Shown here: positions 6,804 through 44,228 of the stretch, piece by piece
Numbering within the stretch: position 1 is the first letter of the stretch
How the letters are laid out: each line of letters begins with the position of its first letter
DNA from: Gammaproteobacteria bacterium
GTDB taxonomy: Bacteria; Pseudomonadota; Gammaproteobacteria; GCA-001735895
DNA length: 64,000 nt
Direction of reading: 5' to 3'
Assembly (NCBI GenBank): GCA_018669845.1
Contig: JABHSO010000199.1
Location: 4,945-68,944 of the forward strand
Made by a program: the position numbers and the translations under genes
The notes under the pieces: model-generated
The model's input: the letters and a program-made list of their open reading frames with translations, nothing else
The model's database searches: none
What the model was told of the DNA's origin: nothing

Positions 6804-6818
6804 GGTTAGCGTAGTTTT

Positions 6819-11354: not shown

Positions 11355-11621
11355 AACAATTGAGTTAATATCCAGCATAGGGAATATGTATTGTCATCAT
11401 CAATTAAACCATGTCTTCTAAATCTGTAGATACATTCGATAAGGTGAGCGATACCAACACCTCACCAGTAGTAATAATACTCAAAACAATGAAAATTTGA
11501 GCCTCAGGGCTAATCAGGAAATTATTTATACTATTATTCATAAATAAATAAAAACCACATTATTTATACAGTATTTAAAGCTATACTTTATAGCAACTCA
11601 TCTGATCGTTTGAGGTGCATC

Positions 11622-12650: not shown

Positions 12651-12672
12651 CTTAATCTGTTAGAATTTAATT

Positions 12673-15054: not shown

Positions 15055-16244
15055 TGAATGATATAACCATCTACATTATCGATGATGAACCTGAAATGGT
15101 GGAATTGCTTTCAGATGTAGTTGAACTTGCTGGTTTGAATGTACAGGGTTATACCCTGGCAAGTAAGTTTTTTGAGAAGGTGATCCACTATAATCCAGGT
15201 GATATTCTGTTGCTTGATCTGAATATGCCAGAAATGGATGGAGTCGAGGTCATGCGAAAATTATCGACACAACAAAACCAACCGGCATTAATTCTTATTA
15301 GCGGAACTGATAAAGGACTGTTATCTGCAGCAGAGAAACTTGGCAAAGCCCATAATCTCGATATTATTACAGTCCTGAGTAAGCCAGTTAATATATACAA
15401 TTTAATACCTCTATTAAATCGAAAAAATATTACTGCCCATACAGATCATCTTTCAAATTATCTGAACCCTCTCGATAGCTCATTGACAAAAGCTGATCTT
15501 CATTATGCTATCCAAAATAACCAGTTAGTTTTGTACTATCAGCCACAGCTTGAAATCTCAACTGGAAAACTGACTTCTGTTGAGGCATTGGTACGCTGGA
15601 ATCACCCTGAGCAGGGACTTATTTTTCCTGACCGTTTTATTCCTCTGGCTGAACACAGCGGACTAATTGGCGATTTAACCAGCTGGGTAGTTAATGAGAC
15701 AATGTATCAAAATCAGCAATGGCTTAAACAGAATTTAAAGATGTCCGTATCCGTTAATATATCAGCGGATGACGTTATGAGTTTGAACTTACCTGAGCAA
15801 ATAACCGAACTGTTAAACAACAACAGCCTGGATCCCTCATCACTCACTCTGGAAGTCACAGAAAGTGCTTTAATGGGAGAGTTGGTGACATCACTGGACA
15901 TTCTTACCCGACTTAGATTGAAAGGAATCAAATTATCAATAGATGATTTTGGTACTGGTTATTCATCTCTTTCTCAATTACATAAAATCCCCTTTACCGA
16001 ATTAAAAACTGATCGCAGTTTTGTTGATAAAATAACAACAGACAGTGAGGCCAGAGCTATTGTAAAAACCTGTATTATTCTGGGCCATGAAATAAATATG
16101 AAAGTTGTTGCTGAAGGGGTAGAAGACCAGCAAACCTGGGAACTTCTCAGTAATCTGGGCTGTGATATTGCACAGGGTTATTTTATTGCTAAAGCCATGC
16201 CAGGAGATGTTTTTGTCGATTGGGTTAACAGTCGAAATTTGTAA
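15054..16244 (+). CDS. response regulator with EAL (c-di-GMP phosphodiesterase) output
   Basis: REC domain (IIDDEPEM...LLLDLNMPEMDG) plus EAL domain (EALVRW, DDFGTGYSSL). Its ATG overlaps the kinase stop by 1 nt. Confidence 0.85.
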   Translation: MNDITIYIIDDEPEMVELLSDVVELAGLNVQGYTLASKFFEKVIHYNPGDILLLDLNMPEMDGVEVMRKLSTQQNQPALILISGTDKGLLSAAEKLGKAHNLDIITVLSKPVNIYNLIPLLNRKNITAHTDHLSNYLNPLDSSLTKADLHYAIQNNQLVLYYQPQLEISTGKLTSVEALVRWNHPEQGLIFPDRFIPLAEHSGLIGDLTSWVVNETMYQNQQWLKQNLKMSVSVNISADDVMSLNLPEQITELLNNNSLDPSSLTLEVTESALMGELVTSLDILTRLRLKGIKLSIDDFGTGYSSLSQLHKIPFTELKTDRSFVDKITTDSEARAIVKTCIILGHEINMKVVAEGVEDQQTWELLSNLGCDIAQGYFIAKAMPGDVFVDWVNSRNL

Positions 16245-16464
16245 CTAAAATTTTGTTTTAATGATTCAAGAGTTTTTTAATTGAATGAAATATCTAAACA
16301 GGAAGTAACCTGGAAAAAATTACCAGTAAGACTGAGAATTAATTGGGTTGCATCTGCAGTCGATTTAGCAACTTTATTTAGCTTTATGGTAGTTTTTTGC
16401 TGAATAATTATATATTGAGATTATACTTATCTTAATCATTCTAGCGGTATGATAGATTTCTAAA

Positions 16465-18156
16465 ATGCAGTCGCTTCAATCATTATTAAAAAAAATTGAG
16501 TCATCTGATCCGGATCAGGTATGTGAACTGGCTGGAGACTTATTAAGCCAGTCACGAGAGAGTGGGGCTGTTCAGTTCCAAGTAAAAGCTCTTGGCTATC
16601 TTGCGATTTGTGCCAAGAAGACTGGGAAAACTGCTGATGCTGAAAAATATGCTCGTGAAGCCATTGAACTTTCAGAACAACAGGGTTTTCAGCGGGAACT
16701 ACTGCTCAATATTAATACGCTTGCTGGTATAAAACTGGTTCAGGGTAAACATACTCAGGTTTTAGAATTACTTGAGCAGTATCTACCACAGGCAACACAG
16801 TCTGGTTTCACTGCTGAACAGGCTCGTTTTCTTACTAACCTGGGTATAGTCAATGAACTTTTAGGTCACTATCCTGCCGCGTTAGAGCATAACCTTCAAG
16901 CTATCGCCTTGTATCGGCAGCTACCAAAATCCCCAAATCTTGCTTATTCTTTGCATAATGTTGCAAATATTTATATGTGGCTGGAATTGTATTCAGAATC
17001 AGTCGGCTATAACCAGGAAGCTATTAATTTACTGGAAGAGCTGGGAGTTACTCATGGACAGGCGATCATATTAAATGGTTTGGGTGAGGCATTTTACCTG
17101 CAGGGTGATTTCACAGAAGCTGAAGCATTTCATGATAATGCGATCAGTTTGGCCAGGGAAACAGGAGATTACCATGAGCTTGCTGATTCGTTATTACAGA
17201 GGGCTAAATGTTCGAACATACCCGGTGCAGAAATTTTGACAAAAGGAATGCTGGATGAGGCCTTACAGCTCTGTTTAACCAGTGGAGAAAAAGGTTTGCA
17301 GGCAGGTATCATGTTGCAATATGGTGCAATGTATCTAAAACAAGAGAATTTTCCACAAGCGTTAGAAGCATTACAGCAAACTATAGGCCTTGCTGAATAT
17401 AGTGAATCAAATGAAATTCTCTGGAATGCTTATAAACTTTTTTCCGAAGCTTCTGAAAAAAGTGAAAATATTGCCGATGCTTTTAAATATTTATCGCTAT
17501 ACACAGAACTGAGGGAAGAGATAAAAGGGATTAAAGTGATTAATCAAATGCAGGCCATTGCTCTTCCCTTCAAACTTAGAGCTGCTCATGCTGAGGCAGA
17601 AGTATTGAGATTGAAAAATAAAGATCTTGAAGTTTTAAGTAAATATGACCACCTGACTGGGTTGGCTAATCGACGTTATTTACAGCAACAAATGGAAGTA
17701 TTATGGCAGCAGGGTTCGTTATCACTTCTTGTCCTCGATATTGATCTTTTCAAACAGATTAATGATCAGTTTTTGCATACAGTAGGAGACCAGGTTTTAA
17801 AAAAATGTGGAGAAATTTTGTTAAGTGCCTGTCAGAAAACTGGCCTGGCTGCCAGGTTTGGTGGTGAAGAATTTGTTTTACTATTACCGGAAGTGGGTTT
17901 AGCTGAAGCGGTAGTAACTGCTGAAAAATTACGGTTAGAATTTGAAAATAATGACTGGGAACAGGAAGCAAAAGGGTTAAAAGTAACCGTAAGCATTGGC
18001 ATTGCTCATAGCAGTGAAAAAAATAATATTGAATCAGTTTTACAATTAGCAGATAGCCGCTTATATCATGCTAAACGTTCAGGTCGAAATAGAACAATAC
18101 CTGATGCTAATATTGGCAGTGATCATTCGCTTCCCACTCAAAACACCTTGCAGTAA
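16465..18156 (+). CDS. TPR-repeat diguanylate cyclase
   Basis: About 380 aa of TPR-like helical repeats, then a GGDEF domain with an intact RFGGEEF active site. Confidence 0.85.
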   Translation: MQSLQSLLKKIESSDPDQVCELAGDLLSQSRESGAVQFQVKALGYLAICAKKTGKTADAEKYAREAIELSEQQGFQRELLLNINTLAGIKLVQGKHTQVLELLEQYLPQATQSGFTAEQARFLTNLGIVNELLGHYPAALEHNLQAIALYRQLPKSPNLAYSLHNVANIYMWLELYSESVGYNQEAINLLEELGVTHGQAIILNGLGEAFYLQGDFTEAEAFHDNAISLARETGDYHELADSLLQRAKCSNIPGAEILTKGMLDEALQLCLTSGEKGLQAGIMLQYGAMYLKQENFPQALEALQQTIGLAEYSESNEILWNAYKLFSEASEKSENIADAFKYLSLYTELREEIKGIKVINQMQAIALPFKLRAAHAEAEVLRLKNKDLEVLSKYDHLTGLANRRYLQQQMEVLWQQGSLSLLVLDIDLFKQINDQFLHTVGDQVLKKCGEILLSACQKTGLAARFGGEEFVLLLPEVGLAEAVVTAEKLRLEFENNDWEQEAKGLKVTVSIGIAHSSEKNNIESVLQLADSRLYHAKRSGRNRTIPDANIGSDHSLPTQNTLQ

Positions 18157-20821: not shown

Positions 20822-21400
20822 CTAATCACTTTTTTTGGTAGCGTTCTGAAAAACTTCAGGCCAGAATTCTTTAACGACAGGACTGGTATTGGCATAACTA
20901 TGACAGCTATTGATAAATTTTGAAGGTTGATTTACCTGGCTTTGGTTATCTGAATTCTCGCCATCAGGTCCATCCAGACTGACTAAAGTTTGAAAAGCAG
21001 TGGTTGCAACAGGACCTAATAACTCTGTTAGATGTGTGCAGCCTTTGGTGCCGCCCATGATATCTCTTAATTTTCCTCTCCAGCCGGGTCCAATTTGAAC
21101 GCCAATCAATTGTTTGAAAATATCAGAAATAGATTTGCAATAATCGTACGGTGTGTAATCCATCACAGCACTTGCATCTTTGATTAACATATCTCTATCG
21201 ATGGTGATTCGAATCGACATACCATGTAGAGCTTCTCCTGCTTTTATAAAACCACCACGATCTTTATTGGGGAAATCAAAAGGTTTGGTATCTACCAGGT
21301 GCCCTTCGATATCGACTAAACCATCATCTCTTAGATAGCCTTCACAGGTTACTTTACGTGTGTGGACTAATTTACGCTCGATAGAAGGAGATAGTGGCAT
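20822..21400 (-). CDS. DUF2889-family protein
   Basis: N-terminus MPLSPSIERKLVHTRKVTCEGYLRDDGLVDIEGHLVDTKPFDF and the later IGPGWRG...GCTHLTELL match my memory of the DUF2889 family. Confidence 0.65.
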   Translation of the reverse strand: MPLSPSIERKLVHTRKVTCEGYLRDDGLVDIEGHLVDTKPFDFPNKDRGGFIKAGEALHGMSIRITIDRDMLIKDASAVMDYTPYDYCKSISDIFKQLIGVQIGPGWRGKLRDIMGGTKGCTHLTELLGPVATTAFQTLVSLDGPDGENSDNQSQVNQPSKFINSCHSYANTSPVVKEFWPEVFQNATKKSD

Positions 21401-21553: not shown

Positions 21554-21578
21554 GTAGGGTGCGCGCGGCACACCCTAC
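21554..21578. repeat. REP-like palindrome, family A (GTAGGGTG...CACCCTAC)
   Basis: gtagggtg cgcgcggca caccctac: 8-bp perfect stem. Related copies occur at 37767-37844. Lies just downstream of the last gene of the Mbx-like operon. Confidence 0.8.
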
Positions 21579-21614: not shown

Positions 21615-22127
21615 TCATACACCACCCGAATGTATGACTTTGTAATATATCTTTTCTAATTCATTTTTATGTTCAGTTTCTTCATGGGCGAGATAGGTGA
21701 ATAAATCTTTAATTGGACCTTCTTCAACTTCTGCTGCTAGAGAGGTGTATTGTTCCATGGCAGCCTGTTCACGGGACAGTGCATATTGCAAAATAGACTG
21801 GTCATCCGGGGTTTCTCCCATGTCTTTGGCCTGGACAGCATCTGAAAACCGGTTGTTGCTGGGAGGCGTTGCTACCATGTCAGATAATTGGCTTTCTATT
21901 TCTGGGTTGACCAGCAATTCAGAGAATAAATTGTAATGCTGCTCTTCTTCTTCGGCCAGTTCTTCAACCAGGTAGCGAATTTGCTTACCGACTTTGGGGA
22001 TTAGGTCAGTGTAAAAATCCTGCGCTGCTTTTTCAAATTGAATTGCGACTTCGAGGATTTCTCTCAGTGTTTTTTTTGATGCCAGCAATTCTCGGCTGCT
22101 GCTGGTATTTTCTGAATCTCTGCCCAT
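21615..22127 (-). CDS. rubrerythrin/ferritin-like di-iron protein (no rubredoxin domain)
   Basis: Two E...ExxH motifs (EELAEEEEQH and AHEETEH) in a four-helix-bundle-sized protein. The ATG at 22125-22127 is chosen, 1 nt after the stop of the upstream gene. The longer ORF-track start overlaps that gene. Confidence 0.7.
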   Translation of the reverse strand: MGRDSENTSSSRELLASKKTLREILEVAIQFEKAAQDFYTDLIPKVGKQIRYLVEELAEEEEQHYNLFSELLVNPEIESQLSDMVATPPSNNRFSDAVQAKDMGETPDDQSILQYALSREQAAMEQYTSLAAEVEEGPIKDLFTYLAHEETEHKNELEKIYYKVIHSGGV

Positions 22128-22128: not shown

Positions 22129-24000
22129 TTATTTACCTGAAGAATTCTTTTTAGTTGTGGACATAAGTTGTTGCTCAATACTGGCAGCAACCCGATGTCC
22201 ATCAGCAACGGCATGTACAACGTCCGGGCCGTTAACACAGTCACCGGCTGACCATAACCAGTCCTCTGATGTTCTGCCATCTGCGTCTACCTGTAACCTG
22301 CCGCGATTCCATTCCAGTTGTTCGGTGAGTTCTTTACCCAGTAGAGAGGTATCGGCAAATTGCCCAATTGCTTCTATGACTGCCTCACAGTTATGAACCA
22401 CTTCCTGTTCTTCATCATATTGAGGTACAAATCGATGCTGTTCATCGAAAATAGAAGTGACTTTCCAGGTTTTAAGGCCTATCAGCTTTCCGTCAGTATC
22501 GATTTCACAGCCCTGAGGTCCACAGCTATCTTTAATGATAATGCCTTCTTCCAGAGATTCTTTAATTTCATCCGGGTCGGCCATAAAATGTTGTTGCTCT
22601 TCGAGGGCCGTCAAGGTTATCTGAACTTTACCGTATTGCTGTTTTTGCAATCTAGCCAGAGAACGGGCTATATCCATGGCAACATTACCGCCACCGATGA
22701 CTGCGACACTGTGTGGCAGTTCAAATTCTTCACCACTGGATATTTTCTGTAATAAATCTACGGCACGATAAACATGTCGATGATCGGAGTTTTTGATTCG
22801 CGTCTGGCGACCTTGAGACAGGCCAATAGCTAAAATAACAGCATCAAAGTTTTTATGCAGTGTGCTCATCCGTTTGTTTTTACCGATTTTACAATCATAA
22901 TGAATCGTCACGCCAAGAGAAGTAATAATATCGATATCCTGCTGCAAGGTATCGAATGGCAGACGATACTCAGGAATGCCGTAACGGGTCATACCACCGG
23001 CATGGGGCAGGGCCTCGAATACTTCAACTTTATGACCTGAACGAACCAGGTCAAAGGCGGCAGTAAGACCCGCAGGTCCTGCACCAATAATAGCGATCTT
23101 CTTGCCACTGGATTTAGAGGTGCTGCCTTCGTTGACAATTTCTTTAATACGTTCATGGCTGACAGAATCCATCGCATAACGCTTTAGCCAACGAATGGCA
23201 ATGGGCTCTCCACGAATACCGATGGAGCAGGCATCTTCGCAGCGTCTGGTACAAACTCGGCCACAAACGTGTGCAAAAGGATTGGTGCGATATATCTGGC
23301 GAACGGCTTCTTCGGCATCATTATTCCAGATAGCTCGAATATATTCCGGTGCATGCATATTGGTAGGGCAGGAGTCATGACACATGCCACATTGCACACA
23401 GCGTGAAGCTTCAAGCACAGCCTGTTCCGGGGTAAAGCCATCGACAATCTCATCAAAATTATCAATTCTGGTTTCAGGTTCCAGTTCAGCCATTGCACTG
23501 CGGGTCAGGCTGAGTAAATCGGAGTGTTCTGTTTTTTGCCAGCCTTTACCAAAATGCTCTTTATGCATGCCATTTGGATCAGGCAGAATAAAATAGCTGT
23601 CGATGTGCTCCTGATCGCAGGTGTGTACATACTCACGCGATAAAGACAGTGAAGAACTGGGACAGATATCCACGCAAAGCGCACACCAGCAGCAGCGACC
23701 GTAATCGATAGCCGGGCGATGGTTACGAATACCTTTTACCGGATCATTAGGCAGGCTGGGAATTTCCACCATGGTGATTGCAGCGTTATCACAGATTTTT
23801 TGGCAGCTTGCACAACCGACACATTCTTCCCAGTCGTTCAAGTGAAAGCCGCGATAATTCAGTGAGGCTAGTCTCGGCTTCAACGGTTCTGTAATTGGTT
23901 TACGCGCCAGAAATTGTAAATTTTTAAGCGGATTGAGCAGTGAACCGGAATCGCTGTGATCTATCACGGGTGTTTTTTTAGGCTTCAGATTTAATTTCAT
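22129..24000 (-). CDS. fusion protein: NuoI/MbxN-like 2x[4Fe-4S] subunit + GltD/SudA/NfnB-like NAD(P)H-FAD oxidoreductase
   Basis: The first ~135 aa carry CVGCASCQKIC and CCWCALCVDICP, as in NuoI/MbhN. From about residue 190 it is GltD-like: RCVQCGMCHDSCP, NPFAHVCGRVCTRRCEDAC, dinucleotide folds KKIAIIGAGPAGLTAA and VAVIGGGNVAMD, and MTRYGIPEYRLP. Confidence 0.85.
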   Translation of the reverse strand: MKLNLKPKKTPVIDHSDSGSLLNPLKNLQFLARKPITEPLKPRLASLNYRGFHLNDWEECVGCASCQKICDNAAITMVEIPSLPNDPVKGIRNHRPAIDYGRCCWCALCVDICPSSSLSLSREYVHTCDQEHIDSYFILPDPNGMHKEHFGKGWQKTEHSDLLSLTRSAMAELEPETRIDNFDEIVDGFTPEQAVLEASRCVQCGMCHDSCPTNMHAPEYIRAIWNNDAEEAVRQIYRTNPFAHVCGRVCTRRCEDACSIGIRGEPIAIRWLKRYAMDSVSHERIKEIVNEGSTSKSSGKKIAIIGAGPAGLTAAFDLVRSGHKVEVFEALPHAGGMTRYGIPEYRLPFDTLQQDIDIITSLGVTIHYDCKIGKNKRMSTLHKNFDAVILAIGLSQGRQTRIKNSDHRHVYRAVDLLQKISSGEEFELPHSVAVIGGGNVAMDIARSLARLQKQQYGKVQITLTALEEQQHFMADPDEIKESLEEGIIIKDSCGPQGCEIDTDGKLIGLKTWKVTSIFDEQHRFVPQYDEEQEVVHNCEAVIEAIGQFADTSLLGKELTEQLEWNRGRLQVDADGRTSEDWLWSAGDCVNGPDVVHAVADGHRVAASIEQQLMSTTKKNSSGK

Positions 24001-25139
24001 CGATCCACCTCCGGAGGACAGGCATCCAGAGAAAACATGGTTTGAGCGACATCTTCAACACGACAGCCAACGGCTAATTTTTCCAGCACCTGAACAGCAT
24101 GCATGGCAGATGGTCCTCGAATATGAACACGGTAAGGTTTTTCTCCACCGTTTGAGACGACATAATAAGCCAGTTCACCTTTGGATGACTCGACTCTTGC
24201 ATAACTGTCTCCAGCGGGCACACGCCAGGCCAGAGGGTTAGGAATAGGGGTTCGAACAGGGCCTTTAATATCCGGTAAGGCTTTGACTACCTGACGAATG
24301 ATGCGAATACTCTCGACCATTTCAAGGCGTCTAACCAGGGTTCTAGCCCAGGCATCACCTGCCTGTTCAGTAGGTATATCAAATTTAAGCTGATCATAAA
24401 TCAAATAGGGGTCATCACGTCGTACATCAAATTCGAGACCACAGGCACGTAGATTAGGGCCGGTAACACTCCATTCGAGAGCCTGTTCCTGATTAATAGT
24501 GCCAATGCCTTTTGCTCGCTTAACAAAAATTTGATTAGTAAAAAACAAATTGTCGTAATCTTTTAAACGGCCATCAATATAATTCAGCGTGTCAGTGACC
24601 CGTTGTAGAAAACCATCCGGGATATCCTGCCTTACTCCACCGGGTAAATTGTAAATACTGTAAACACGGCCTCCTGTCAGTTCTTCAAATAAATCAAGTA
24701 ACAGGTCTCGATCGGCAACACCCCAGTACATAGGTGTATACATGCCGGTCGTGGCTGCGTGCCCACCGAAGTAAAATAAATGTGCTGCAATGCGGGATAA
24801 TTCCAGTTGTAAAACGCGTAGCCACTGGGCTCTTTCAGGAACTTCAATGCCGGCAAGATCTTCAACGGCTAGTGAATAACACACTTCCATTGGAACAGGA
24901 TCGGGCACACAGATGCGTGGAACCAGTGCGATATTTTGAATCCACAGGCGGTCTTCCATCAATTTTTCGAAACCACGGTGCAGGTAACCGGCATCGGCTC
25001 TGGCTTCGACAACCGTATCACCCTGTAGTTTGACTTTCAGCGCATAGTTGCCTTCAATTCCCGGATGATTGGGGCCAAAGTTGAGTTCGAATTCATTGCT
25101 GGGCGGATGATTAACCGACTGATAGTTTTCAGGTCTCAT
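23997..25139 (-). CDS. NuoD / [NiFe]-hydrogenase-large-subunit-like catalytic subunit (MbxL/MbsL-like)
   Basis: GPNHPGIEGNYAL...GYLHRGFEKLMEDR matches the NuoD/HycE family. The NiFe Cys pairs are degenerate: RICVPDP and C-terminal DACPPEVDR. Confidence 0.85.
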   Translation of the reverse strand: MRPENYQSVNHPPSNEFELNFGPNHPGIEGNYALKVKLQGDTVVEARADAGYLHRGFEKLMEDRLWIQNIALVPRICVPDPVPMEVCYSLAVEDLAGIEVPERAQWLRVLQLELSRIAAHLFYFGGHAATTGMYTPMYWGVADRDLLLDLFEELTGGRVYSIYNLPGGVRQDIPDGFLQRVTDTLNYIDGRLKDYDNLFFTNQIFVKRAKGIGTINQEQALEWSVTGPNLRACGLEFDVRRDDPYLIYDQLKFDIPTEQAGDAWARTLVRRLEMVESIRIIRQVVKALPDIKGPVRTPIPNPLAWRVPAGDSYARVESSKGELAYYVVSNGGEKPYRVHIRGPSAMHAVQVLEKLAVGCRVEDVAQTMFSLDACPPEVDR

Positions 25140-25140
25140 T

Positions 25141-25704
25141 TTAGTGCTCCTTCATCCTGATAGATTCAGGAGTGCTGACTACACCACCACCCTGTTTCTC
25201 AAGGTCTTTCAACCAGTCCGGGTGATACTCCTGCCAGCTGAATGTTTCCATAACCCATTTTTCTGAATTAAAGTCTTTGCGCATGGGAGGTGGTCCATTC
25301 CATTCGGTTAAAATGAACTTACTCATGTCTGGACTGCCTTCAAAGTAAAGGCCAAACATTTCGTGGATGTCACGTTCAAAAAATGCAGCGGGTGTATAAA
25401 TATCAAATACAGATAAATAAATACCGGGGTCTCGAGGAATTCGAATATGAGCTGAAATCAGTACCGATGTTTCATAAGACCACAGATGATAAACAAGTTC
25501 GAACTGGTTTTCCTCGATCCAGTCGACGCAGGAAATTGCAGATAGATGGACATAACTGGCACGTCCTCGCAGTAATGCGAGTAATGCGGGCAGAGCTTCG
25601 GCAGCAATATCAGCACGTAAACGGCGTGGATTATGATGGGTGAGGTGTATGCCTTCAATTTCCTGCAACAGTACATTGAGATTTTGAGAGTGTGCGGCAC
25701 TCAT
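25141..25704 (-). CDS. NuoC-like (30 kDa) subunit (MbxK-like)
   Basis: FERDIHEMFGLYFEGSPD motif typical of NuoC/HycE-N. Sits between the NuoB-like and NuoD-like genes. Confidence 0.8.
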   Translation of the reverse strand: MSAAHSQNLNVLLQEIEGIHLTHHNPRRLRADIAAEALPALLALLRGRASYVHLSAISCVDWIEENQFELVYHLWSYETSVLISAHIRIPRDPGIYLSVFDIYTPAAFFERDIHEMFGLYFEGSPDMSKFILTEWNGPPPMRKDFNSEKWVMETFSWQEYHPDWLKDLEKQGGGVVSTPESIRMKEH

Positions 25705-26402
25705 AGCTTCATCTCCAATGGTTCCAGCGGACGTTGAACTGACTCAAGAATTTTTGTGTGTTCACCCAGAGTATTGGGGCCTTCTAATTTATAAGTTTTG
25801 GCTTCACCGATAATATCGGTTGGTGTCTGCCAGTTATTTCCAAATAAATGTTGTTGATTGCCGAGATAATAGTCGTAGTTCGCGTAGTACTGTTTCCACG
25901 AATTAGCTTCATCGGTTTTAATCTTTTCCATCAACTGCTGCAGACCTTCCATCACCGCTTCCGGTCTGGGCATACAACCGGCGATATATAAATCGACAGG
26001 AACATACTCGTCCAGTTTTTTTGCTGTAGCATAACTTTGCCAGTACATGCCGCCATTGACGGTGCAGGAACAGATTCCGATAACGTATTTAGGCGCACCC
26101 ATCTGTTCATATGTCAGTATGACCCGTTTTAATGTTTTGATAGAAACATAACCGGTGATCAGCAGGATGTCAGCCTGACGTGGTGTAACCATCGGCTGAA
26201 TGCCCAGTCTTTCCATATCGAAACGAGATGTCATGGCCGGGGGTAATTCTATTGCACCACAACCGGTGCAATAGTGCAGCATGAACATCGAACGAGAACG
26301 GCAGAAGCTGACCAGTTCATCAAACACATTAGCAAATGGATTGCTACGCTTTGCGACCGGTTTCTGGTTTACTTCAATTTTATCGAGGTCAGTATTACTC
26401 AT
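25701..26402 (-). CDS. NuoB-like [4Fe-4S] subunit (MbxJ-like) with a C-terminal extension
   Basis: Cluster Cys contexts YCTGCGAIE, GICSCTVNGG and IAGCMPRPE. About 70 extra C-terminal residues. Confidence 0.8.
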   Translation of the reverse strand: MSNTDLDKIEVNQKPVAKRSNPFANVFDELVSFCRSRSMFMLHYCTGCGAIELPPAMTSRFDMERLGIQPMVTPRQADILLITGYVSIKTLKRVILTYEQMGAPKYVIGICSCTVNGGMYWQSYATAKKLDEYVPVDLYIAGCMPRPEAVMEGLQQLMEKIKTDEANSWKQYYANYDYYLGNQQHLFGNNWQTPTDIIGEAKTYKLEGPNTLGEHTKILESVQRPLEPLEMKL

Positions 26403-26427
26403 TAGGCTTTCTCATCGATTGGCTCCT

Positions 26428-27336
26428 TTAATTCATCACGAACGCGATACCAATCAGCGCCAGCATGACAGGCCACTTCCACACCAGACGCACAAGATCA
26501 TCGGTGCGATAACGAGGGAAAAGGTAAGCGATAACAACAGGTATTGCCAGGACACCAAAACACTTCAGCAGAAAGGTAATCCAGTTTTCTCCACCACCCA
26601 GAAATAGTGAAACGTAAAGCACACTGGCGGTATAAAGCTGAAAACTTTGCATGACGAATAAACCACCCAGAAACTTCCCACCCATTTCGACCATAGGGCC
26701 AGTGGCTATTTCTGCTGGTGCAATATAGATTTCAAAAGGTTGTTTTCCAAGCGAAGCATGCATAGCGAATAATCCGGCAAGTGCAAGCACTGGCATTTCA
26801 CTGATACCCCAGGTGCTGAATCCACCTGCCTGCTGGGTAGCAATAATGTCCACCAGATTGGTGCTGCCAAATTGATAAGCGACACCGAAAATGACGATGA
26901 TAAAAGGAATGTCATAAGCCAGCATTGAAGTCAGTGCGCGAGATATACCTATTGAACCATTCGGGTTTGCGCATTGACCAACCCCGAGTGCCAAGCCAAG
27001 AGAAGGCACCATGGTCAGGTAAGCCAGTGTGATAATGCCACCTTGAGCAGCGATACCATTCATGCCGGGAACGGGCAGTAGTGCTTCAGCGGCCACATAT
27101 CCACCCACGGCCATAACGATGCCAATGTCATGAATTAAACCATGTGATACCTGGGTCTGTTTGCCGTACAGCTTGATGATGTCATACAACGGTTGAAACA
27201 GGGGAGGACCGACACGTCGCTGTAATCTAGCCGCAAGTTTGCGCATCATCAAAACCATGAATAAACCGATGATGAAGGCCACTATCGGCATCATGATAAC
27301 TTCTATGATGGTGAGTAGAATATCGTTCATCGCCAT
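26428..27336 (-). CDS. NuoH/HycD-like membrane subunit (MbxM-like)
   Basis: RKLAARLQRRVGPP motif and about eight TM helices. Confidence 0.8.
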   Translation of the reverse strand: MAMNDILLTIIEVIMMPIVAFIIGLFMVLMMRKLAARLQRRVGPPLFQPLYDIIKLYGKQTQVSHGLIHDIGIVMAVGGYVAAEALLPVPGMNGIAAQGGIITLAYLTMVPSLGLALGVGQCANPNGSIGISRALTSMLAYDIPFIIVIFGVAYQFGSTNLVDIIATQQAGGFSTWGISEMPVLALAGLFAMHASLGKQPFEIYIAPAEIATGPMVEMGGKFLGGLFVMQSFQLYTASVLYVSLFLGGGENWITFLLKCFGVLAIPVVIAYLFPRYRTDDLVRLVWKWPVMLALIGIAFVMN

Positions 27337-29211
27337 CTATTGTCCTGTAAAAAAGTAGAGTGAAAGCGTTGCTGCTATCAATAAAAACAGAGCTGGATGA
27401 AAACTGTTAAAGAGTATCTGAGTGAAGCCGCTCAACAGACTGACAATTGAAACCAGTGATGCTTCAAGCCATTGGAAGGTGCCTCGATACCAGCCACCGA
27501 TATGGTGCATCAGGCCGGCATAAAAATTATTACTGTAATGGTAGCGGGTATCGGCTGTGAGGAAATGTCCGCCGGCATAATTGTCCAGCTGGTGAACGCG
27601 TTTAGTCTTATTACCAGAGTAAAACAGTAATGCTCCGACACCAAATCCACCAAATAACACGCCACATATCCAAATCATGTCAAGGCTACCTCGGGTAGAT
27701 TCAACGCCACCGAGGTGATGCACAACCTGAGGAATACCTATGGATGCCTGTGCAGCAGCCACCCAGTCCAACACCAGTCCCGGCATGAAACCGGTGATAA
27801 AGACCACGGCCGATAACAACAGCATAGGAATCATCATGCTCCAGGGCACCTCACGAATCTGTTCATGTTCCAGTCGAAGTTGTCCCAGAAACGTATTATG
27901 AATGAGTTTATACACCGAAAGAATCGTGCCCAATGTGCCTATAACTGCGGCCACAAAAAGTAATGGCATGCCTTCAATAATCAGTGAACGATACACCAGC
28001 CACTTGGACACAAAACCGTTCATGGGTGGAATGCCTGCCAGGCCGATAATGCCGACCAGCATCACCATAAAAGTTAAGGGCATGCGAGCAACCAACCCAC
28101 CAAGCTGGTTTAAATCTGATGTTTTGGTGCGATAGATAACCGATGAAACCGACAGGAACAGTGCTGCCTGATAAGTCGCGTGATTAAATACATGCATCAA
28201 ACCACCGGCACTGCCAAAGGGATCGAGTACAAGCACACCCATCAACATATAACCACCCTGACCGATGCCATGCCAGGCTAATAATCGACGTGCATCATTT
28301 TGACGAAGAGCCGTGAAGGTTGCAAAGATCGTGGTGAAAGCCGCGATCCACATGATAAAATCACGCAGAGAAAAGAAGGTATAAGGTATTTCAATTTCTA
28401 TCAGTCGTGCCAGACCCACTAACTGAATGATGACAACCAGAATGGCATAAAGACCCATGCGAGAAGATATAGAACCCAGAAATGCTGTGCCGGGACCGGG
28501 TGTTTCTGCATAGGCATCTGCTTGCCAAAGATGGAATGGAATCAAGCCCATCTTGATACCAAAGCCCACGATGAATAACAGGCTCAGAGTAGTGACTTGT
28601 ACTGTATTAAATTTAGGGGCTATAGCGGCCAGATCAGAATAGGAAAATGATCCGGTTAAATGGTAAATAAACCCGAGACCAGCCAGAACAGCCATGGCTC
28701 CTGCCGTAGCGTAAACGATGTACCTCAATCCATATTCAGTGGCTTTACCACCGGCTATCACCATCAATAACAGACTTGCCCAGCTGACCAGTTCCCATCC
28801 GATGAACAGTGAAAGCAGGTCGCCACTGCCGAGCAAAACCAGCATGGCAAATACATTGAGTGCGATTGAAAATTGTAACAACCCTGGTTTGCCACCATGT
28901 TTCAGATGGTCTTTAGCCCACGATCCGGCTGCAAACATTGAACTGGTTAAAGCAGCACCGATTGTGATCAGTGCAAAAAACCAGGATAGGCCATCAAAGC
29001 GCCAGCTAAGTGGTTGGCCAAGTATGGACAGGTTGAAAGAAGATTCTATGGCTGCGCCGCCATAACCGAGGCTTCCCATGAACAGTAAATTCAAAAATTG
29101 AGCGGTAAATAAAGCTGCCGTTACCCAGCCGATCAAATGCTGTTTTTGTCCCAGTCCGGAAATAACCGCTGTTATTAACGAGAGTAATAGTAAGGTATCA
29201 AGTGCACTCAT
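27337..29211 (-). CDS. NuoL/MrpA-type antiporter-like subunit (MbxH'-like)
   Basis: 624-aa polytopic protein with the Proton_antipo_M core (GWELVSWASLLLM). Confidence 0.8.
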   Translation of the reverse strand: MSALDTLLLLSLITAVISGLGQKQHLIGWVTAALFTAQFLNLLFMGSLGYGGAAIESSFNLSILGQPLSWRFDGLSWFFALITIGAALTSSMFAAGSWAKDHLKHGGKPGLLQFSIALNVFAMLVLLGSGDLLSLFIGWELVSWASLLLMVIAGGKATEYGLRYIVYATAGAMAVLAGLGFIYHLTGSFSYSDLAAIAPKFNTVQVTTLSLLFIVGFGIKMGLIPFHLWQADAYAETPGPGTAFLGSISSRMGLYAILVVIIQLVGLARLIEIEIPYTFFSLRDFIMWIAAFTTIFATFTALRQNDARRLLAWHGIGQGGYMLMGVLVLDPFGSAGGLMHVFNHATYQAALFLSVSSVIYRTKTSDLNQLGGLVARMPLTFMVMLVGIIGLAGIPPMNGFVSKWLVYRSLIIEGMPLLFVAAVIGTLGTILSVYKLIHNTFLGQLRLEHEQIREVPWSMMIPMLLLSAVVFITGFMPGLVLDWVAAAQASIGIPQVVHHLGGVESTRGSLDMIWICGVLFGGFGVGALLFYSGNKTKRVHQLDNYAGGHFLTADTRYHYSNNFYAGLMHHIGGWYRGTFQWLEASLVSIVSLLSGFTQILFNSFHPALFLLIAATLSLYFFTGQ

Positions 29212-30704
29212 TGAACTTTACTCATTTGTTGATCCAGACTTGTTTGCTTTCTCATCGGGGCCTGCTTTGTTGAAAACGTGGTATTTATATACAAAGCACG
29301 GTCACTACTTTCTGCTGCAATCTTATTTAGCTTATTGCCTAAAGGCGCCAGAGTGACAAGTGCCACAATCAACACCACAGCGAATACAGATACAATGGTT
29401 AAATTGAAGGGTGTCTGATGAAGTTTTTTGCGCTGCTTCTTTTTACCTTTGGAATAAATATGTATAGCTGTGCGCATTAAATAATGAGCTTCGATAACGG
29501 TTGCCGTTAATAGAACTACCAGGGCAGTGATATAGAGTGATGCACTGGCTTCCACAAGGCCGTTCACCAGTAATAGTTTTGCCCAGAAACCGGGTAGAGG
29601 CGGTACGCCAATCAATGACAATGCAAATATCATGAATAATATAGCTGCCAGAGGTGAGCTTTTAGCAGCGCCTTTCAGTTTGTCGATTGCTCCGTTCCAG
29701 TATTCTGTCAGCATGAACAGTGCAGGTTTGACGATGAGATGATGTAACATCATAGCGATACCGGCGAACATACCGGCTTCACCGGGAATAGAAAAAGCGA
29801 CCAGCACCATGCCCAGTTGACCGATGGATGAAAAAGATAACATCCGTTTCAAATCCCTGGAACGCCAGGCCGATAGTTCACCCCAGAAGATGCCGAGCAT
29901 ACCCAGAACCAGTAGTAAATTTAATGCTTCAGGTACCTGGTAAGCCACCACCAGCAGTCTGATGATAACCAGTACCGCCAGTTTTGAAATGAGTCCTGCG
30001 AGCAGGGCGCTGATACGTGGACTTGCGGTGGAATACACTTCTGGAACCCAGCCATTGACTGGAAAAATTTCAGCTTTGACACCTATACCGACAACGATTA
30101 ATGCGAATGCAGAGAGTCCAACCGGGTTATTAAGCTGAGAAGCCAGCAAACCGATATGAGCTAAATTTAGTGTGCCGGTCTGGGTGTAGATGAGGCCGAT
30201 ACCGGTTAATGCCAAAACCGTGCCCAGTCCGCTCATGACCAGATAACGAAAAGTAGCTGCAAAAGCGGCACCGGTACGATTGGCAGCAGCCAGTCCAAAG
30301 GAAGCAACAGAAAGTAGTTCATAGAAAACGTAAATGTTAAACAGGTCACTGGATAAAGCCAGTCCACTTGCTGAACCGGCCAGCAGTAATAATAATGATT
30401 CTTCACGATAGCCTTCTTTGTTGGCGTAGGGCCATAGCAGTAACATGATTAACGGGATAATGCAGGCCATTAATAATGAAAGATTATCCAGATGAAAAGT
30501 GATGCCTAGCGGTGGACGGAAGCCGCCGAGAGCAATGGCTATAGGGTGTTCAAGCATATTAAAGTAAGCCAGTGCGAACCCAAGCATCGCCAGCAGAACG
30601 AAGGGGCCGATAAAGCGCGCAGCTGATTTTGAATTATTGCTTATGATGGGTAATAGAAATGCGGTGAGCAAAGGTAGCGCGACATTGAAAGCTATGTTAT
30701 TCAT
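29208..30704 (-). CDS. MrpD/NuoN-type antiporter-like subunit (MbxH-like)
   Basis: 498-aa polytopic protein (FYELLSVASFGLAA). 4-nt overlaps with both neighbouring genes. Confidence 0.8.
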   Translation of the reverse strand: MNNIAFNVALPLLTAFLLPIISNNSKSAARFIGPFVLLAMLGFALAYFNMLEHPIAIALGGFRPPLGITFHLDNLSLLMACIIPLIMLLLWPYANKEGYREESLLLLLAGSASGLALSSDLFNIYVFYELLSVASFGLAAANRTGAAFAATFRYLVMSGLGTVLALTGIGLIYTQTGTLNLAHIGLLASQLNNPVGLSAFALIVVGIGVKAEIFPVNGWVPEVYSTASPRISALLAGLISKLAVLVIIRLLVVAYQVPEALNLLLVLGMLGIFWGELSAWRSRDLKRMLSFSSIGQLGMVLVAFSIPGEAGMFAGIAMMLHHLIVKPALFMLTEYWNGAIDKLKGAAKSSPLAAILFMIFALSLIGVPPLPGFWAKLLLVNGLVEASASLYITALVVLLTATVIEAHYLMRTAIHIYSKGKKKQRKKLHQTPFNLTIVSVFAVVLIVALVTLAPLGNKLNKIAAESSDRALYINTTFSTKQAPMRKQTSLDQQMSKVQ

Positions 30705-31186
30705 TTGTCACCTCCCTGGTTTAGCTGAGCAGTTTCATTTTGTGCTGATGGCTCAGGTAAAGGACGTTCACCCGCAGGCTGCTCGCTGCTTAACAGAGAA
30801 ATCACGCCGCTATTACTGTCGATGTCAGTCGATAGTCTCTGGTGGATTTCACGTATATCGAGAGTTTTGTAGTTTTGATAAACTTTTAGGACCAACGCCA
30901 GTGCCAGTGCCTGAATACCGACACCGATGACAATAGAAGTTAATACCATCGCCTGTGGAACCGGGTCGACCATCAGCTGGTTAACCGACGACCCCGTTAA
31001 AATGGGCGCAATTGCATCGAAGCGATAACCGGCAATCACCAGTAACAGGTTGGCTCCTGCTTCAGCGATGACCAGAGCCAGAACGATGCGGAAGATATTG
31101 TTCAATGTCACCACACCGACAATACCTATAACGATTAAACCCATGGCTCCGCCGTAGAGTAACCAGTGAATCAGGTCTGTAGTCAT
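30701..31186 (-). CDS. MrpC/NuoK-like subunit (MbxG-like) with a hydrophilic C-terminal tail
   Basis: Three TM helices of NuoK/MnhC type, then a polar tail of about 50 aa. Confidence 0.7.
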   Translation of the reverse strand: MTTDLIHWLLYGGAMGLIVIGIVGVVTLNNIFRIVLALVIAEAGANLLLVIAGYRFDAIAPILTGSSVNQLMVDPVPQAMVLTSIVIGVGIQALALALVLKVYQNYKTLDIREIHQRLSTDIDSNSGVISLLSSEQPAGERPLPEPSAQNETAQLNQGGDK

Positions 31187-31941
31187 GATCCGTTACTCTC
31201 CGTTTGCAGTGATGATTCTTCCAGGTCAGTTGATTCTGGCACTATTTCACCAATCTCAGCCAAATTAGCCAGTAAGCCGGAAAGCTCTGCACCCACTTTC
31301 AAACCAACTGCGGTATAAAGTAATGGCAGTGTACCGGCTGAAAGAAGTGAACCCATTTCACCGTGACTAAAAAAAGGTTGTAGAAAAGCATTGCCCTGAA
31401 ATAACGCGATAATGCCAATCACTATAAAAGATGCGCCGGCAAAACCTTCGACCAGAGCCAGTCCACTGTGATTAACCCCGCGTCCGGGTACTGCTAGCAA
31501 GGGTAGAAAGAAAGCAGCTGCCAGAATAACACCGCCCTGGAAACCACCGCCCGGTGTTAAATGACCGTGCAGAATAATGTACATGCCAAGGGTAATGAGT
31601 AGAGGGAAAAACAAACTGGCACTGCTGGCCAGGATAGTGCCTTCATCTCTGATGCTTTCTTTTTTGTTTGAAGATGATTTTGTAGATAATGAGCTTAACA
31701 CCAGTGATGTTGCGGTAGATGCGGTAAAAAGTATCGCAATTTCTCCCAGCGTATCAATTCCCCTGTAACCCAGTACCACTGAAGTAACCAGGTTGGCAGC
31801 TCCGACTTCATCGGCTCCCTGTTGTAATATTGCTTCACCGATTAACATAGGAGCACCACCGACAACGAATTGCCAGGTGATGACCAGCAGTAAAAAAGCA
31901 AGACCAGAAGCAAACACTAAAGCACTGACATTACGCATCAT
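31183..31941 (-). CDS. MrpB (MnhB)-domain membrane subunit (MbxF-like)
   Basis: NLVTSVVLGYRGIDTLGEIAILF is the MnhB signature. Confidence 0.7.
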   Translation of the reverse strand: MMRNVSALVFASGLAFLLLVITWQFVVGGAPMLIGEAILQQGADEVGAANLVTSVVLGYRGIDTLGEIAILFTASTATSLVLSSLSTKSSSNKKESIRDEGTILASSASLFFPLLITLGMYIILHGHLTPGGGFQGGVILAAAFFLPLLAVPGRGVNHSGLALVEGFAGASFIVIGIIALFQGNAFLQPFFSHGEMGSLLSAGTLPLLYTAVGLKVGAELSGLLANLAEIGEIVPESTDLEESSLQTESNGS

Positions 31942-32197
31942 TTTGCTCCGACTGTTGTTTACCGTGGTTTTTATTAATTCGGAATAAAGCCAGTGCCAGA
32001 ATAACCGTGCTTAAACCAGAACCGACAACTGCTTCGGTCATCGCAACATCAGGTGCTTGCAGGATGACGAATAATACCGACAGGGCCAGTGATACAGCTG
32101 ATGTAGCGGCGATAGCAGAAACATGGCTCTCTACAAACAAAACGGTGATAGCCCCGGCTAACATTATGATAACCATCAATGCGATAACCCAGGTCAT
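31931..32197 (-). CDS. DUF4040 / MbhD-MbxD-like small membrane subunit
   Basis: 88 aa with three TM helices and the APDVAMTEAVVG motif. Confidence 0.6.
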   Translation of the reverse strand: MTWVIALMVIIMLAGAITVLFVESHVSAIAATSAVSLALSVLFVILQAPDVAMTEAVVGSGLSTVILALALFRINKNHGKQQSEQNDA

Positions 32198-32523
32198 GTC
32201 TTTTCACCAGAGGTGTTTAAAGGTTTCTGCTGTTTGGAAGGTTTAGTCCAGGGTTTAATGCCTGACAGGTACACAGCGCGTGAAAGTACAGAGGAGCTGA
32301 CTGGACTGGTAAATAACAGAAAGCCAATGATGCAAAGTAATTTTGTCCACCATTCAGGGTAAAGTAGACCTACGCCTAAAATGATCGCAATTGAACCTAA
32401 TGTTGCTGCCTTGGTACCCGCCTGAATGCGGTTGTAAATATCGGGCATTCGAATCAGCCCCAAAGCGCCTAAAAAGCAAAATATTGCCCCAAGAAGTAGT
32501 ATGACATCGGCAATAAGTCTCAT
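32194..32523 (-). CDS. MrpG (MnhG)-like subunit (MbxC-like)
   Basis: LLLGAIFCFLGALGLIRMPDIYNRIQAGTKAATLG is the MnhG/PhaG signature. Confidence 0.75.
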   Translation of the reverse strand: MRLIADVILLLGAIFCFLGALGLIRMPDIYNRIQAGTKAATLGSIAIILGVGLLYPEWWTKLLCIIGFLLFTSPVSSSVLSRAVYLSGIKPWTKPSKQQKPLNTSGEKT

Positions 32524-32786
32524 GATCTTCCTCCCTCAATAACCCGGGAGATCGCTATTATTCCGATAAAAGAGATAGCACCATAAACCAGTGCAACATC
32601 AAGAAAAAGAGGGCTATTGAAATAAGCTGCAAATACAGTCAGTCCAGCGGTGATGGTAACTGACATGGTGTCAGCACTAATAACCCGGTCAGGTGCATCA
32701 GGGCCGATAATGAGTCGAATGAGACCCAGCAGTAAGGCGGCTCCGATAAAGCCAACCGCTATTTGTTCCAGCAGGTTAAAGGTCAC
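32520..32786 (-). CDS. MrpF (MnhF)-like subunit (MbxB-like)
   Basis: 88 aa with three TM helices and the GPDAPDRVISADT motif. Confidence 0.7.
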   Translation of the reverse strand: MTFNLLEQIAVGFIGAALLLGLIRLIIGPDAPDRVISADTMSVTITAGLTVFAAYFNSPLFLDVALVYGAISFIGIIAISRVIEGGRS

Positions 32787-33292
32787 TTGAGGAATCCTGA
32801 AATATGTTTTTCGAAGCCGGTGGCTATATCCTGAGTTGCCTGTTCCAGGCTGATGCCTTCGGGGGCGGCAATCCAGTGTACTAATATTTTGTTATGCCTT
32901 AACTCGACAGCTAAAGTGCCCGGTGTCAGAGTGATGCTATTCGCCAGTAACATCTGGCCAAGTCTGGATTCCAGTTTTGTATCGATTTCTAGCAGTTCTG
33001 GGCTGATGGGTAAAGAAGGGGAAAGAACCCGATGAGCCATATCGAAATTTGCTTTAATCAGCGCAATAAAAAAGTATCCCAGATAGGTAAGTAATGAAAC
33101 TATTGCGGTCGGGGTATATCGAATGCCATCAAAAATATTGATATAGGGGGCAGAGATCAGGGAAACCACGGCTGCTACCATGATACCAGCAAAGAGTTCA
33201 TCCAGTGCCAGAGATCCTGTCAACAATATCCACAACAGCAACATGGTAGCAAACAGAAATATATGGTGATGAATATTGAGACGGTTAAGCAT
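32783..33292 (-). CDS. MrpE (MnhE)-like subunit (MbxA-like), first gene of the operon
   Basis: 169 aa: N-terminal TM helices plus a soluble MnhE-type domain. Its stop overlaps the next gene by 4 nt. Confidence 0.65.
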   Translation of the reverse strand: MLNRLNIHHHIFLFATMLLLWILLTGSLALDELFAGIMVAAVVSLISAPYINIFDGIRYTPTAIVSLLTYLGYFFIALIKANFDMAHRVLSPSLPISPELLEIDTKLESRLGQMLLANSITLTPGTLAVELRHNKILVHWIAAPEGISLEQATQDIATGFEKHISGFLK

Positions 33293-33544
33293 TCAATTAA
33301 AGTTTTCCTGTAGTGTGGTGAACTATAATATTGATGTCTTGTAAAAGATATTTTAAGTACGTAATAGTTTTAGTTCAATCAGGGAGTATTATCTATTTTT
33401 TTTAATGATTTTCTACATTAGAATCTGGAATAGTAGCTTGTTATGATATAGGTCAAATGGGATATGCCAGCAAGTGAATCAGGAAGATAATGAGTGCCTT
33501 AAAATTGAAGAAAACGTAGAGTCTCCCTTACAATTATTTTTACT

Positions 33545-41932: not shown

Positions 41933-41941
41933 GATGAGCCC

Positions 41942-42940: not shown

Positions 42941-42969
42941 TTTTATAACTCTTTCCTGGTAAGGTAGCG

Positions 42970-44226: not shown

Positions 44227-44228
44227 GA

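Follow-up and report, generated by a model that had tools for sequence, protein, structure and literature searches.

The MBS complex of Pyrococcus furiosus (formerly Mbx; PDB entry 6U8Y) is a demonstrated polysulfide reductase that works via its proximal cluster (Yu et al. 2020, PMC7684303). Its MbsN is a stand-alone subunit that takes electrons from free ferredoxin. Mbx-like operons with a gltD-related subunit, a terminal rubrerythrin and vestigial NiFe cysteines were described in 2015 (Degli Esposti, PMC4758237). A "putative Mrp-Mbx complex" was reported in Candidatus Endoriftia persephone, the symbiont of Riftia, with its function and direction marked as unknown (Mitchell et al. 2024, PMC11636981). 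Here we describe an operon of this kind in 64,000 nt of DNA from a Gammaproteobacteria bacterium (assembly GCA_018669845.1, contig JABHSO010000199.1, positions 4,945 to 68,944). The whole of this stretch is called the window, and all positions are counted from its first nucleotide.

By its sequence, the 14-gene operon is an MBS/Mbx-type cluster in which an Mrp module is combined with NuoBCDHI and both antiporter-like subunits, H and H', are present. We estimate a probability of about 0.5 that it encodes an ion-translocating, NADH-linked sulfane-sulfur oxidoreductase of the MBS/Mbx type. A preliminary description by a model had delimited 13 tightly packed minus-strand genes, and the list of open reading frames (ORFs) gave exactly those coordinates (33292-22129). 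Most of the 13 abut or share 4 nt with their neighbour; overlaps in the run reach at most 11 nt (31931-31941) and gaps at most 25 nt (26403-26427). The 14th operon gene, at 21615-22127, had been overlooked. The genes, in the order of transcription, are as follows.

32783..33292, minus strand: mbsA (MrpE-like), 169 aa; Pfam MNHE, E 1e-34; top PDB match 6u8y_A, 103 bits.
32520..32786, minus strand: mbsB (MrpF-like), 88 aa; Pfam MrpF_PhaF; top PDB match 6u8y_B, 53 bits.
32194..32523, minus strand: mbsC (MrpG-like), 109 aa; Pfam PhaG_MnhG_YufB; top PDB match 6u8y_C, 82 bits.
31931..32197, minus strand: mbsD (MbhD/DUF4040), 88 aa; Pfam MbhD; 6u8y_D, 38 bits; also matches the C-terminal part of MrpA.
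31183..31941, minus strand: mbsE (MbhE plus MrpB-like), 252 aa; Pfam MnhB, with MbhE weak; top PDB match 6u8y_E, 151 bits.
30701..31186, minus strand: mbsG (MrpC/NuoK-like), 161 aa; Pfam Oxidored_q2; top PDB match 6u8y_G, 75 bits.
29208..30704, minus strand: mbsH (MrpD/NuoN-like antiporter subunit), 498 aa; Pfam Proton_antipo_M; top PDB match 6u8y_H, 222 bits; NCBIfam PRK08377.
27337..29211, minus strand: mbsH' (MrpA N-terminal/NuoL-like antiporter subunit with a C-terminal extension), 624 aa; Pfam Proton_antipo_M; top PDB match 6u8y_X, 189 bits.
26428..27336, minus strand: mbsM (NuoH-like membrane anchor), 302 aa; Pfam NADHdh; top PDB match 6u8y_M, 180 bits.
25701..26402, minus strand: mbsJ (NuoB-like, proximal [4Fe-4S]), 233 aa; top PDB match 6u8y_J, 226 bits.
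25141..25704, minus strand: mbsK (NuoC-like), 187 aa; Pfam Complex1_30kDa; top PDB match 6u8y_K, 67 bits.
23997..25139, minus strand: mbsL (NuoD-like), 380 aa; top PDB match 6u8y_L, 401 bits, E 4e-119.
22129..24000, minus strand: mbsN::gltD-like fusion, 623 aa; Pfam Fer4_9/Fer4_7, Fer4_20 and Pyr_redox_2; 6u8y_N, 72 bits (residues 19-129 only).
21615..22127, minus strand: 14th gene, erythrin-like diiron four-helix-bundle protein, 170 aa; Pfam Rubrerythrin/Ferritin_2; two ExxH motifs.

Families were assigned with Pfam profiles and NCBIfam models, and each product was compared with all PDB sequences. The Pfam families in gene order were MNHE, MrpF, MnhG, MbhD, MnhB with MbhE, Oxidored_q2, Proton_antipo_M twice, NADHdh, Oxidored_q6, Complex1_30kDa and Complex1_49kDa. 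All 13 products of the initial run had the cognate chain of P. furiosus MBS as their top PDB match (6U8Y chains A, B, C, D, E, G, H, X for H', M, J, K, L and N), which bears out the Mbx gene order with H and H' proposed earlier. MbsH' aligned to residues 50-587 of its P. furiosus counterpart and matched NCBIfam PRK08668 over its full length (410 bits). As judged from these sequence matches, the likeness of the 13-gene run to MBS far exceeds chance. It extends to the 13 subunit types, their order, the Cys pair of MbsL, the Cys pattern and loop length of MbsJ and the absence of quinone ligands. The window operon differs from P. furiosus MBS in that its MbsN is extended at the C-terminus by about 490 aa, mostly GltD/NfnB-like, so that the donor is probably NADH. 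It also adds the erythrin-like gene, has other residues at some charged positions of the membrane arm, and belongs to a mesophilic proteobacterium.

The putative catalytic site was compared with those of four reference proteins. MbsL of the window scored 401 bits with P. furiosus MbsL, 268 with Nqo4 of T. thermophilus, 130 with MbhL and 111 with HycE. Its motifs RICVPDP and, at the C-terminus, DACPPEVDR aligned to RICVPEP and DNCPPDIDR of P. furiosus MbsL, with which it shares 51% identity (54% for the MbsJ pair). Two of the four NiFe cysteines were kept, and the second Cys of each pair was Asp or Glu. The pair that remains is the one kept in P. furiosus, where C85 and C385 are the two NiFe ligands that MbsL retains out of four (PMC7684303), and the earlier assignment of the NuoD-like subunit to the MBS clade was thereby upheld in the four-column alignment. 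At the quinone-ligand columns of Nqo4, His38 was replaced by Glu29 and Tyr87 by Val, as in P. furiosus MbsL, in agreement with the view that the subunit is not a complex I NuoD. The motifs GPNHPGIEGN, RICVPDP and DACPPEVDR were invariant across 19 proteobacterial MbsL orthologues. In a neighbor-joining tree the proteobacterial MbsL proteins formed one tight clade, with P. furiosus and Thermosipho outside.

MbsJ was likewise closest to its MBS counterpart (6u8y_J 226 bits, NdhK 120, MbhJ 106). Residues 26-192 aligned without gaps to residues 6-172 of P. furiosus MbsJ, including a loop of identical length, and therefore Cys45, Cys48, Cys113 and Cys143 correspond to C25, C28, C93 and C123. In P. 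furiosus the proximal cluster is ligated by C28, C93 and C123, with C25 displaced because the loop has three residues fewer than its MBH counterpart (PMC7684303). The window protein has CxxC (CTGC) in place of the tandem CC of cluster N2 in complex I. In MbsM the motif K-x-P-F-x-I-x-I-A-P-x-E-I-x-x-G-P-M-V-E-x-G-G-K of the loop between transmembrane helices 5 and 6 was kept, including the E203 and E211 columns. In the alignment of MbsH to 6u8y_H, the columns of P. furiosus E138 and K250 were conserved as Glu and Lys.

Two better-known systems were rejected on these data. The group 4 membrane-bound [NiFe]-hydrogenase MBH (6CFW) shares the ancestry of the Mrp module and of subunits J, K, L, M and N. 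It lacks the second antiporter subunit H', and MbhL gave only 130 bits with the window MbsL. Two of the four cysteines of the hydrogenase pattern (RxCGxC ... DPCxxC) of Mbh, Ech and Hyc are missing here. Respiratory complex I (Nuo/Nqo) shares homologues of NuoB, C, D, H, I, K, L and N and an L-shaped, pump-coupled architecture. In contrast to complex I, the window operon has Mrp E, F, G and B and lacks the quinone His/Tyr and the N2 tandem Cys. No NuoE, NuoF or NuoG of an NADH-input module was found by Pfam among the 14 operon genes, and NuoA and NuoJ were likewise absent among them.

The last gene of the 13-gene run had been called NuoI-like. This holds for residues ~19-130, which form a NuoI/MbsN-like domain with two [4Fe-4S] clusters; Pfam, PDB and NCBIfam matches identify the remainder as a GltD/NfnB-type flavoprotein (residues ~167-613) with two further [4Fe-4S] clusters, FAD and NAD(P)H sites. 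Residues 167-613 matched NfnB-type proteins in PDB (9n5u_A 219 bits, 4ylf_B 208, 5jca_L 199). NCBIfam PRK13984 ("putative oxidoreductase") matched the fusion from end to end at 772 bits, the curated cut-off of 946 not being reached. The N-terminal domain has two CxxCxxCxxxC motifs (C60/63/66/70 and C103(104)/106/109/113), and the GltD part has C201/204/207/211 and C246/250/254/258, all invariant. In an alignment of 14 fusion homologues (65-86% identity), 16 of 16 cluster cysteines were conserved. The GltD part contains two Rossmann folds with GAGPAG and GGGNVA. Like NfnB, GltD and SudA (4YLF_B, 5JCA_L, 2VDC_G), the C-terminal 450 aa combine the two-cluster Fer4_20 domain with FAD and NAD(P)H folds. 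Unlike them, the window protein is fused to a NuoI-like domain, and the operon has no NfnA or GltB partner. As an NAD(P)H/FAD module is fused to the MbsN-like domain, the predicted donor shifts from ferredoxin to pyridine nucleotide.

In Rossmann folds an acidic residue indicates NAD and Arg indicates NADP, and YRR is taken as the site of the NADPH 2'-phosphate. The fusion has ALE where 9bov, 8oh5, 9n5u, 5vj7 and 5jca have YRR after beta2, preceded by a 5-residue insertion ahead of beta2 relative to NfnB/GltD-like structures. A465 and E467 were invariant and L466 nearly so among the 14 homologues, and the Thermosipho fusion has SLER at this position. The replacement of YRR by ALE suggests that the fusion subunit prefers NADH over NADPH.

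The start codon of the erythrin-like gene lies one base beyond the stop codon of the fusion gene, and the same 170-aa ORF was obtained by an independent gene call on a metagenome contig. The protein has two ExxH motifs and no rubredoxin domain. Its matches to Pfam Rubrerythrin/Ferritin_2 are weak, and its top PDB matches are the ferritin-like diiron proteins 2fzf_A and 1vjx_A. The gene was found directly downstream of the fusion gene in 80 of 80 related loci and in Thermosipho. Such tight coupling, kept from Thermotogae to Gammaproteobacteria, suggests a stoichiometric partner. The protein is probably a peroxide-scavenging companion or subunit, most simply for a flavin/Fe-S module that would be sensitive to oxygen.

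In the protein database the fusion protein has over 120 relatives of full length, 66-95% identical, with tubeworm endosymbionts, Ca. Thiodiazotropha, Sedimenticola, Gallionellaceae and Chromatiales as named sources. In a scan of one genome per GTDB species, 456 stretches encoded a relative; of these, at most all carry the fusion, since the GltD-like part alone could satisfy one of the two patterns used. Synteny and hosts were surveyed in the best 80 of the 456, all of which have the full-length fusion (65-94% identity). These 80 also include Thiobacillus, Hydrogenophilales, Parasulfuritortus, Thiohalobacter, Thiohalocapsa, Thiolapillus, Thiogranum and Thiotrichaceae. The closest among them are an unclassified gammaproteobacterial metagenome-assembled genome (MAG) at 94% and a Thiotrichaceae MAG at 88%, as expected for a genome that had looked proteobacterial. 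The named hosts are overwhelmingly sulfur oxidizers of the Gamma- and Betaproteobacteria that handle elemental sulfur (S0). When the window proteins were searched by tblastn against the 80 loci, the 13 genes and the erythrin gene kept their order and orientation wherever the contig reaches. Clustering of the ORFs downstream of the erythrin gene across related loci gave no universal 15th gene; the neighbours are clade-specific, mostly within Thiodiazotropha.

An exhaustive search of representatives at 50% identity gave about twelve additional clusters that have the complete fusion architecture; their named members are from Thermosipho melanesiensis, candidate division WOR-3, Ca. Hydrothermae and Spirochaetaceae. 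The Thermosipho locus has the identical 14-gene order, with one-base spacing before a 167-aa erythrin-like gene, and 30-65% identity per subunit to the window operon. MbsL of this locus (L081, 8882-9985) reads GPNHPGMHGN and has His at the Nqo4 His38 column, where Glu stands in 19 of 19 proteobacterial orthologues and in P. furiosus. By this comparison, a difference in the substrate site inside the fused-type group is possible.

The operon in the window is thus a further copy of a widespread MBS/Mbx subgroup already described from genomes. The rarity in Proteobacteria implied by the preliminary description did not hold, since the same synteny occurs in the best 80 species genomes of sulfur oxidizers. 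It had also allowed for a synteny already common and characterized in this lineage; the arrangement is common and was described from genomes in 2015, but it is biochemically uncharacterized. The vestigial first and third NiFe Cys, the gltD-related protein in the NuoI position and the terminal rubrerythrin-like gene are all present in the window operon. It belongs to the fused-type group of the 2015 description (PMC4758237), which includes Thermosipho with identical 14-gene order and Cys vestiges. Thermosipho hosts are S0-reducing fermenters, whereas the proteobacterial clade consists of sulfur oxidizers. Relatives of Endoriftia, the symbionts of Lamellibrachia and Escarpia, have the same 14-gene cluster with a fusion 72% identical to that of the window. 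The comparison with Endoriftia, a gammaproteobacterial sulfur oxidizer, rests on the loci of these relatives and on published expression data (PMC11636981). In those data the Mrp-Mbx genes were co-expressed with the reductive tricarboxylic acid (rTCA) cycle, both hydrogenases, a V-type ATPase and sulfur-globule proteins. In the literature search, the top-ranked papers on Mbx with Beggiatoa, Thiomargarita, Thioploca, Sedimenticola or Thiodiazotropha made no mention of Mbx. An "Mbx"-related, hyf-like six-gene cluster of Ca. Symbiobacter mobilis is a different system.

The operon products have the residues to bind FAD, a nicotinamide nucleotide and five [4Fe-4S] clusters. In the proposed complex, electrons would pass from NAD(P)H to FAD, through the two [4Fe-4S] clusters of the GltD part and the two of the MbsN part, to the proximal cluster of MbsJ, and from there to a substrate at the J/L/M interface. 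The peripheral arm of MbsJ, MbsK and MbsL, whose [4Fe-4S] chain is predicted to end at the MbsJ proximal cluster, would be anchored by the NuoH-like MbsM. The Mrp-derived membrane arm (MbsA-E, G, H and H') would move H+ or Na+. Homology to P. furiosus MBS and the sulfur lifestyle of nearly all named hosts make sulfane sulfur, as polysulfide or persulfide, the most likely substrate. Such a compound would be reductively cleaved at the MbsJ cluster as in P. furiosus MBS, and this would drive the movement of H+ or Na+.

The standard potentials of NADH (about -320 mV) and of the S0/HS- couple (about -270 mV) are close, and so a near-equilibrium, readily reversible reaction is expected. At low sulfide, stored S0 could be respired with NADH and an ion gradient built; high sulfide together with a high membrane potential might allow the complex to run backward. 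Forward running fits three sets of published data: the respiration of stored S0 with polyhydroxyalkanoate by Beggiatoa, for which the enzyme is unknown (PMC3253548), the 4.4-fold rise of mbxA in Thermotoga maritima on addition of S0 (PMC9431562), and the co-expression in Endoriftia. The reduction of S0 by Thermotoga also speaks for the NADH-linked oxidoreductase. Several points weigh against it. Transfer from NADH to polysulfide would yield about 10-12 kJ/mol per two electrons, compared with about 42 for ferredoxin (estimates from standard potentials). Unless sulfide is low, this would hardly pay for one ion; with sulfide in the micromolar range, the yield would grow several-fold through the Nernst shift of the S0/HS- couple. 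The nucleotide preference leans on a single motif. An AlphaFold2 model of the fusion from the 14-sequence alignment had a mean pLDDT of 53 and a pTM of 0.42, too poor for judging how the domains dock. Some residues of the MBS structure paper differ here, namely E104 (Met) and E193 (Gln) in MbsM and H330 (Met) in MbsH. Hosts such as Gallionellaceae and MAGs labelled Cellvibrionales are not classic S0 storers, and the literature search found no biochemical study of a fused-type MBS.

The main rival reading is the same enzyme working in the opposite direction. The H+ or Na+ gradient would drive electrons from sulfide or polysulfide to NAD+, supplying NADH for CO2 fixation more cheaply than transfer from quinol to NAD+ via complex I. 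The hosts are almost all sulfide-oxidizing autotrophs, the couples lie only about 50-60 mV apart as judged from standard potentials, so that a small driving force would suffice, and the forward energy yield is poor next to that of ferredoxin-driven MBS. The authors of the Endoriftia study also left the direction of MBX as unknown (PMC11636981). Yet the Endoriftia genes group with rTCA, hydrogenases and sulfur-globule proteins and not with the Calvin-Benson-Bassham/Sox/rDsr module that is active on sulfide, and the partners rTCA and Hyd1e rise under limiting sulfide (PMC11636981). Thermotogae are fermenters with the same operon, induced by S0 as an electron sink, and a sulfide-oxidizing activity has been reported for no MBS. 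We therefore regard it as rather unlikely that the complex works in this direction. It is equally doubtful that sulfur-oxidizing autotrophs run an NADH-coupled MBS mainly in reverse, as a near-isopotential sulfide/polysulfide:NAD+ route in which erythrin would guard the flavin/Fe-S module at oxic-anoxic interfaces.

Two further functions would dispense with sulfur, and both appear improbable. According to the older Mbx model the complex would be an ion-translocating ferredoxin:NAD(P)+ oxidoreductase whose GltD module reduces NAD(P)+, similar to Rnf and perhaps reversed, making reduced ferredoxin for rTCA or nitrogenase. This function was given for mbx-like operons by Degli Esposti in 2015 (PMC4758237). 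It agrees with the co-expression of the Mrp-Mbx genes with the ferredoxin-dependent rTCA cycle in Endoriftia (PMC11636981) and with the 2-oxoacid:ferredoxin oxidoreductase and polyferredoxin genes that the window has at a distance of about 16-21 kb from the operon. Later work on P. furiosus MBS, however, showed that polysulfide, and not NADP+, is what the enzyme reduces at its proximal cluster (PMC7684303). Coupling of the complex I type should need chemistry at the J/L/M interface, which transfer between soluble carriers along the distal clusters would bypass, and the conserved motifs of the MbsJ/MbsL catalytic site would be left without a role. Moreover, no ferredoxin gene was found within the conserved 14-gene unit. 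If the GltD-like flavoprotein instead replaced NuoEFG and quinone was reduced at MbsL/J while the Mrp-type arm pumped, the complex would be an alternative NADH:quinone oxidoreductase. The energy of that transfer would be ample for two pump subunits, NuoD is the second-best match of MbsL (268 bits, well over the hydrogenase large subunits), and several subunits carry Nuo-like names in NCBIfam. The Glu and Val at the His38 and Tyr87 columns of Nqo4 and the CxxC of MbsJ in place of the N2 tandem CC argue against quinone, as do site motifs identical to, or one or two residues off, those of the polysulfide-reducing P. furiosus MBS. The same operon also occurs in Thermotogae, which are not known to have respiratory quinones.

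At sulfidic interfaces the dominant organisms are sulfur-storing chemolithoautotrophs, among them the symbionts of lucinids and tubeworms, relatives of Beggiatoaceae, Sedimenticola and Thiobacillus. Two gaps of long standing in their bioenergetics are the enzyme for anoxic respiration of stored S0 and the cost of making NAD(P)H. An ion-pumping MBS with its own pyridine-nucleotide module, as proposed here, is a candidate for either gap. Should the reverse direction apply, costly reverse electron transport from quinol to NAD+ through complex I would be bypassed. The arrangement itself was known from genomes; the contribution here is the corrected annotation, with the fusion subunit, the 14th gene and the probable preference for NADH.

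The presumed promoter region and a possible end of the operon are as follows.

33293..33544, no strand assigned: divergent intergenic region between mbsA and sbcD, read from the sequence; presumed promoter region of the operon.
21554..21578, minus strand: GC-rich hairpin, about 35 nt past the erythrin stop codon (GTAGGGTG...CACCCTAC); candidate operon end.

The hairpin has no U-tract and is for this reason missing from the list of the terminator scan. Over the operon, a scan for promoter and terminator consensus sequences gave the same counts as shuffled sequences; the three sigma-70-like minus-strand matches in 33293..33544 were in total no better than shuffles. Directly downstream of the operon, with a spacer of its own, lies a DUF2889 gene (192 aa, 20822-21400, minus strand), which none of the 80 related loci has next to its operon. 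The GC content of the operon is about 46%, compared with 36-42% in the immediate flanks. It was not taken as evidence of recent transfer, since other parts of the window reach the same GC.

The window has an FNR-like half-match, TTGACCTATATCAT, some 164 nt ahead of the mbsA start codon, which is weak evidence. Palindromic half-matches of the FNR/CRP type were seen 100-175 nt upstream of mbsA in the window and in loci L001, L003, L006, L009, L012, L013 and L034. They read TTGACCTATATCAT in the window and L001, CTGATCTGGATCAA in L003, and CTGATCTGTGTCAT/A in the loci of tubeworm symbionts and L034. A scan for the FNR box (TTGAT-N4-ATCAA) with at most two mismatches upstream of mbsA was positive in 12 of 42 loci, with 6.2 expected from shuffles. 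This weak enrichment is suggestive at best, and FNR control of the operon was not used in the interpretation.

Elsewhere in the window, a 2-oxoacid:ferredoxin oxidoreductase set lies on the minus strand (POR gamma 44229-44810, alpha 42970-44226, TPP beta 41942-42940). It is followed by a second GltD/NfnB-like protein (40286-41932, minus strand) with Fer4_20, Pyr_redox_2 and a C-terminal 4Fe-4S dicluster, which has SRYE where NfnB has YRR. A divergent polyferredoxin gene (45133-45618, plus strand) adjoins the set. From their domains, the genes at 40286-45618 could encode an NAD(P)H-linked 2-oxoacid synthase/oxidoreductase. At 59926-62678 on the plus strand, the gene for a 628-aa protein, in which residues 91-345 form a partial cytochrome bd subunit I domain, stands directly before that for a 288-aa c-type cytochrome. 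In its domain composition this looks like a "bd-like" oxidase arrangement and not like canonical CydAB. The minus-strand run at 50587-59026 is unusual in its content and comprises an amine-oxidase/phytoene-desaturase-like flavoprotein, a radical SAM/SPASM protein with PCP_red, a 708-aa protein with two Usp and three PCP_red domains, an unannotated 246-aa ORF and an 811-aa HEAT-repeat protein.

On the other side of the operon, a plus-strand signalling cluster (8067-18156) encodes a stand-alone hemerythrin, a Tll0287-like/GGDEF/EAL protein, a periplasmic binding protein, a hybrid histidine kinase with a C-terminal hemerythrin domain, a response regulator-EAL protein and a TPR-GGDEF protein, with a flavour of oxygen or iron sensing. 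The paa and TRAP genes named earlier as flanks agree with the content of 126-7838, where a paa-type set for fatty-acid/phenylacetate degradation (3-hydroxyacyl-CoA dehydrogenase, two enoyl-CoA hydratases, a hexapeptide transferase and a PaaX regulator) lies beside TRAP DctPQM.

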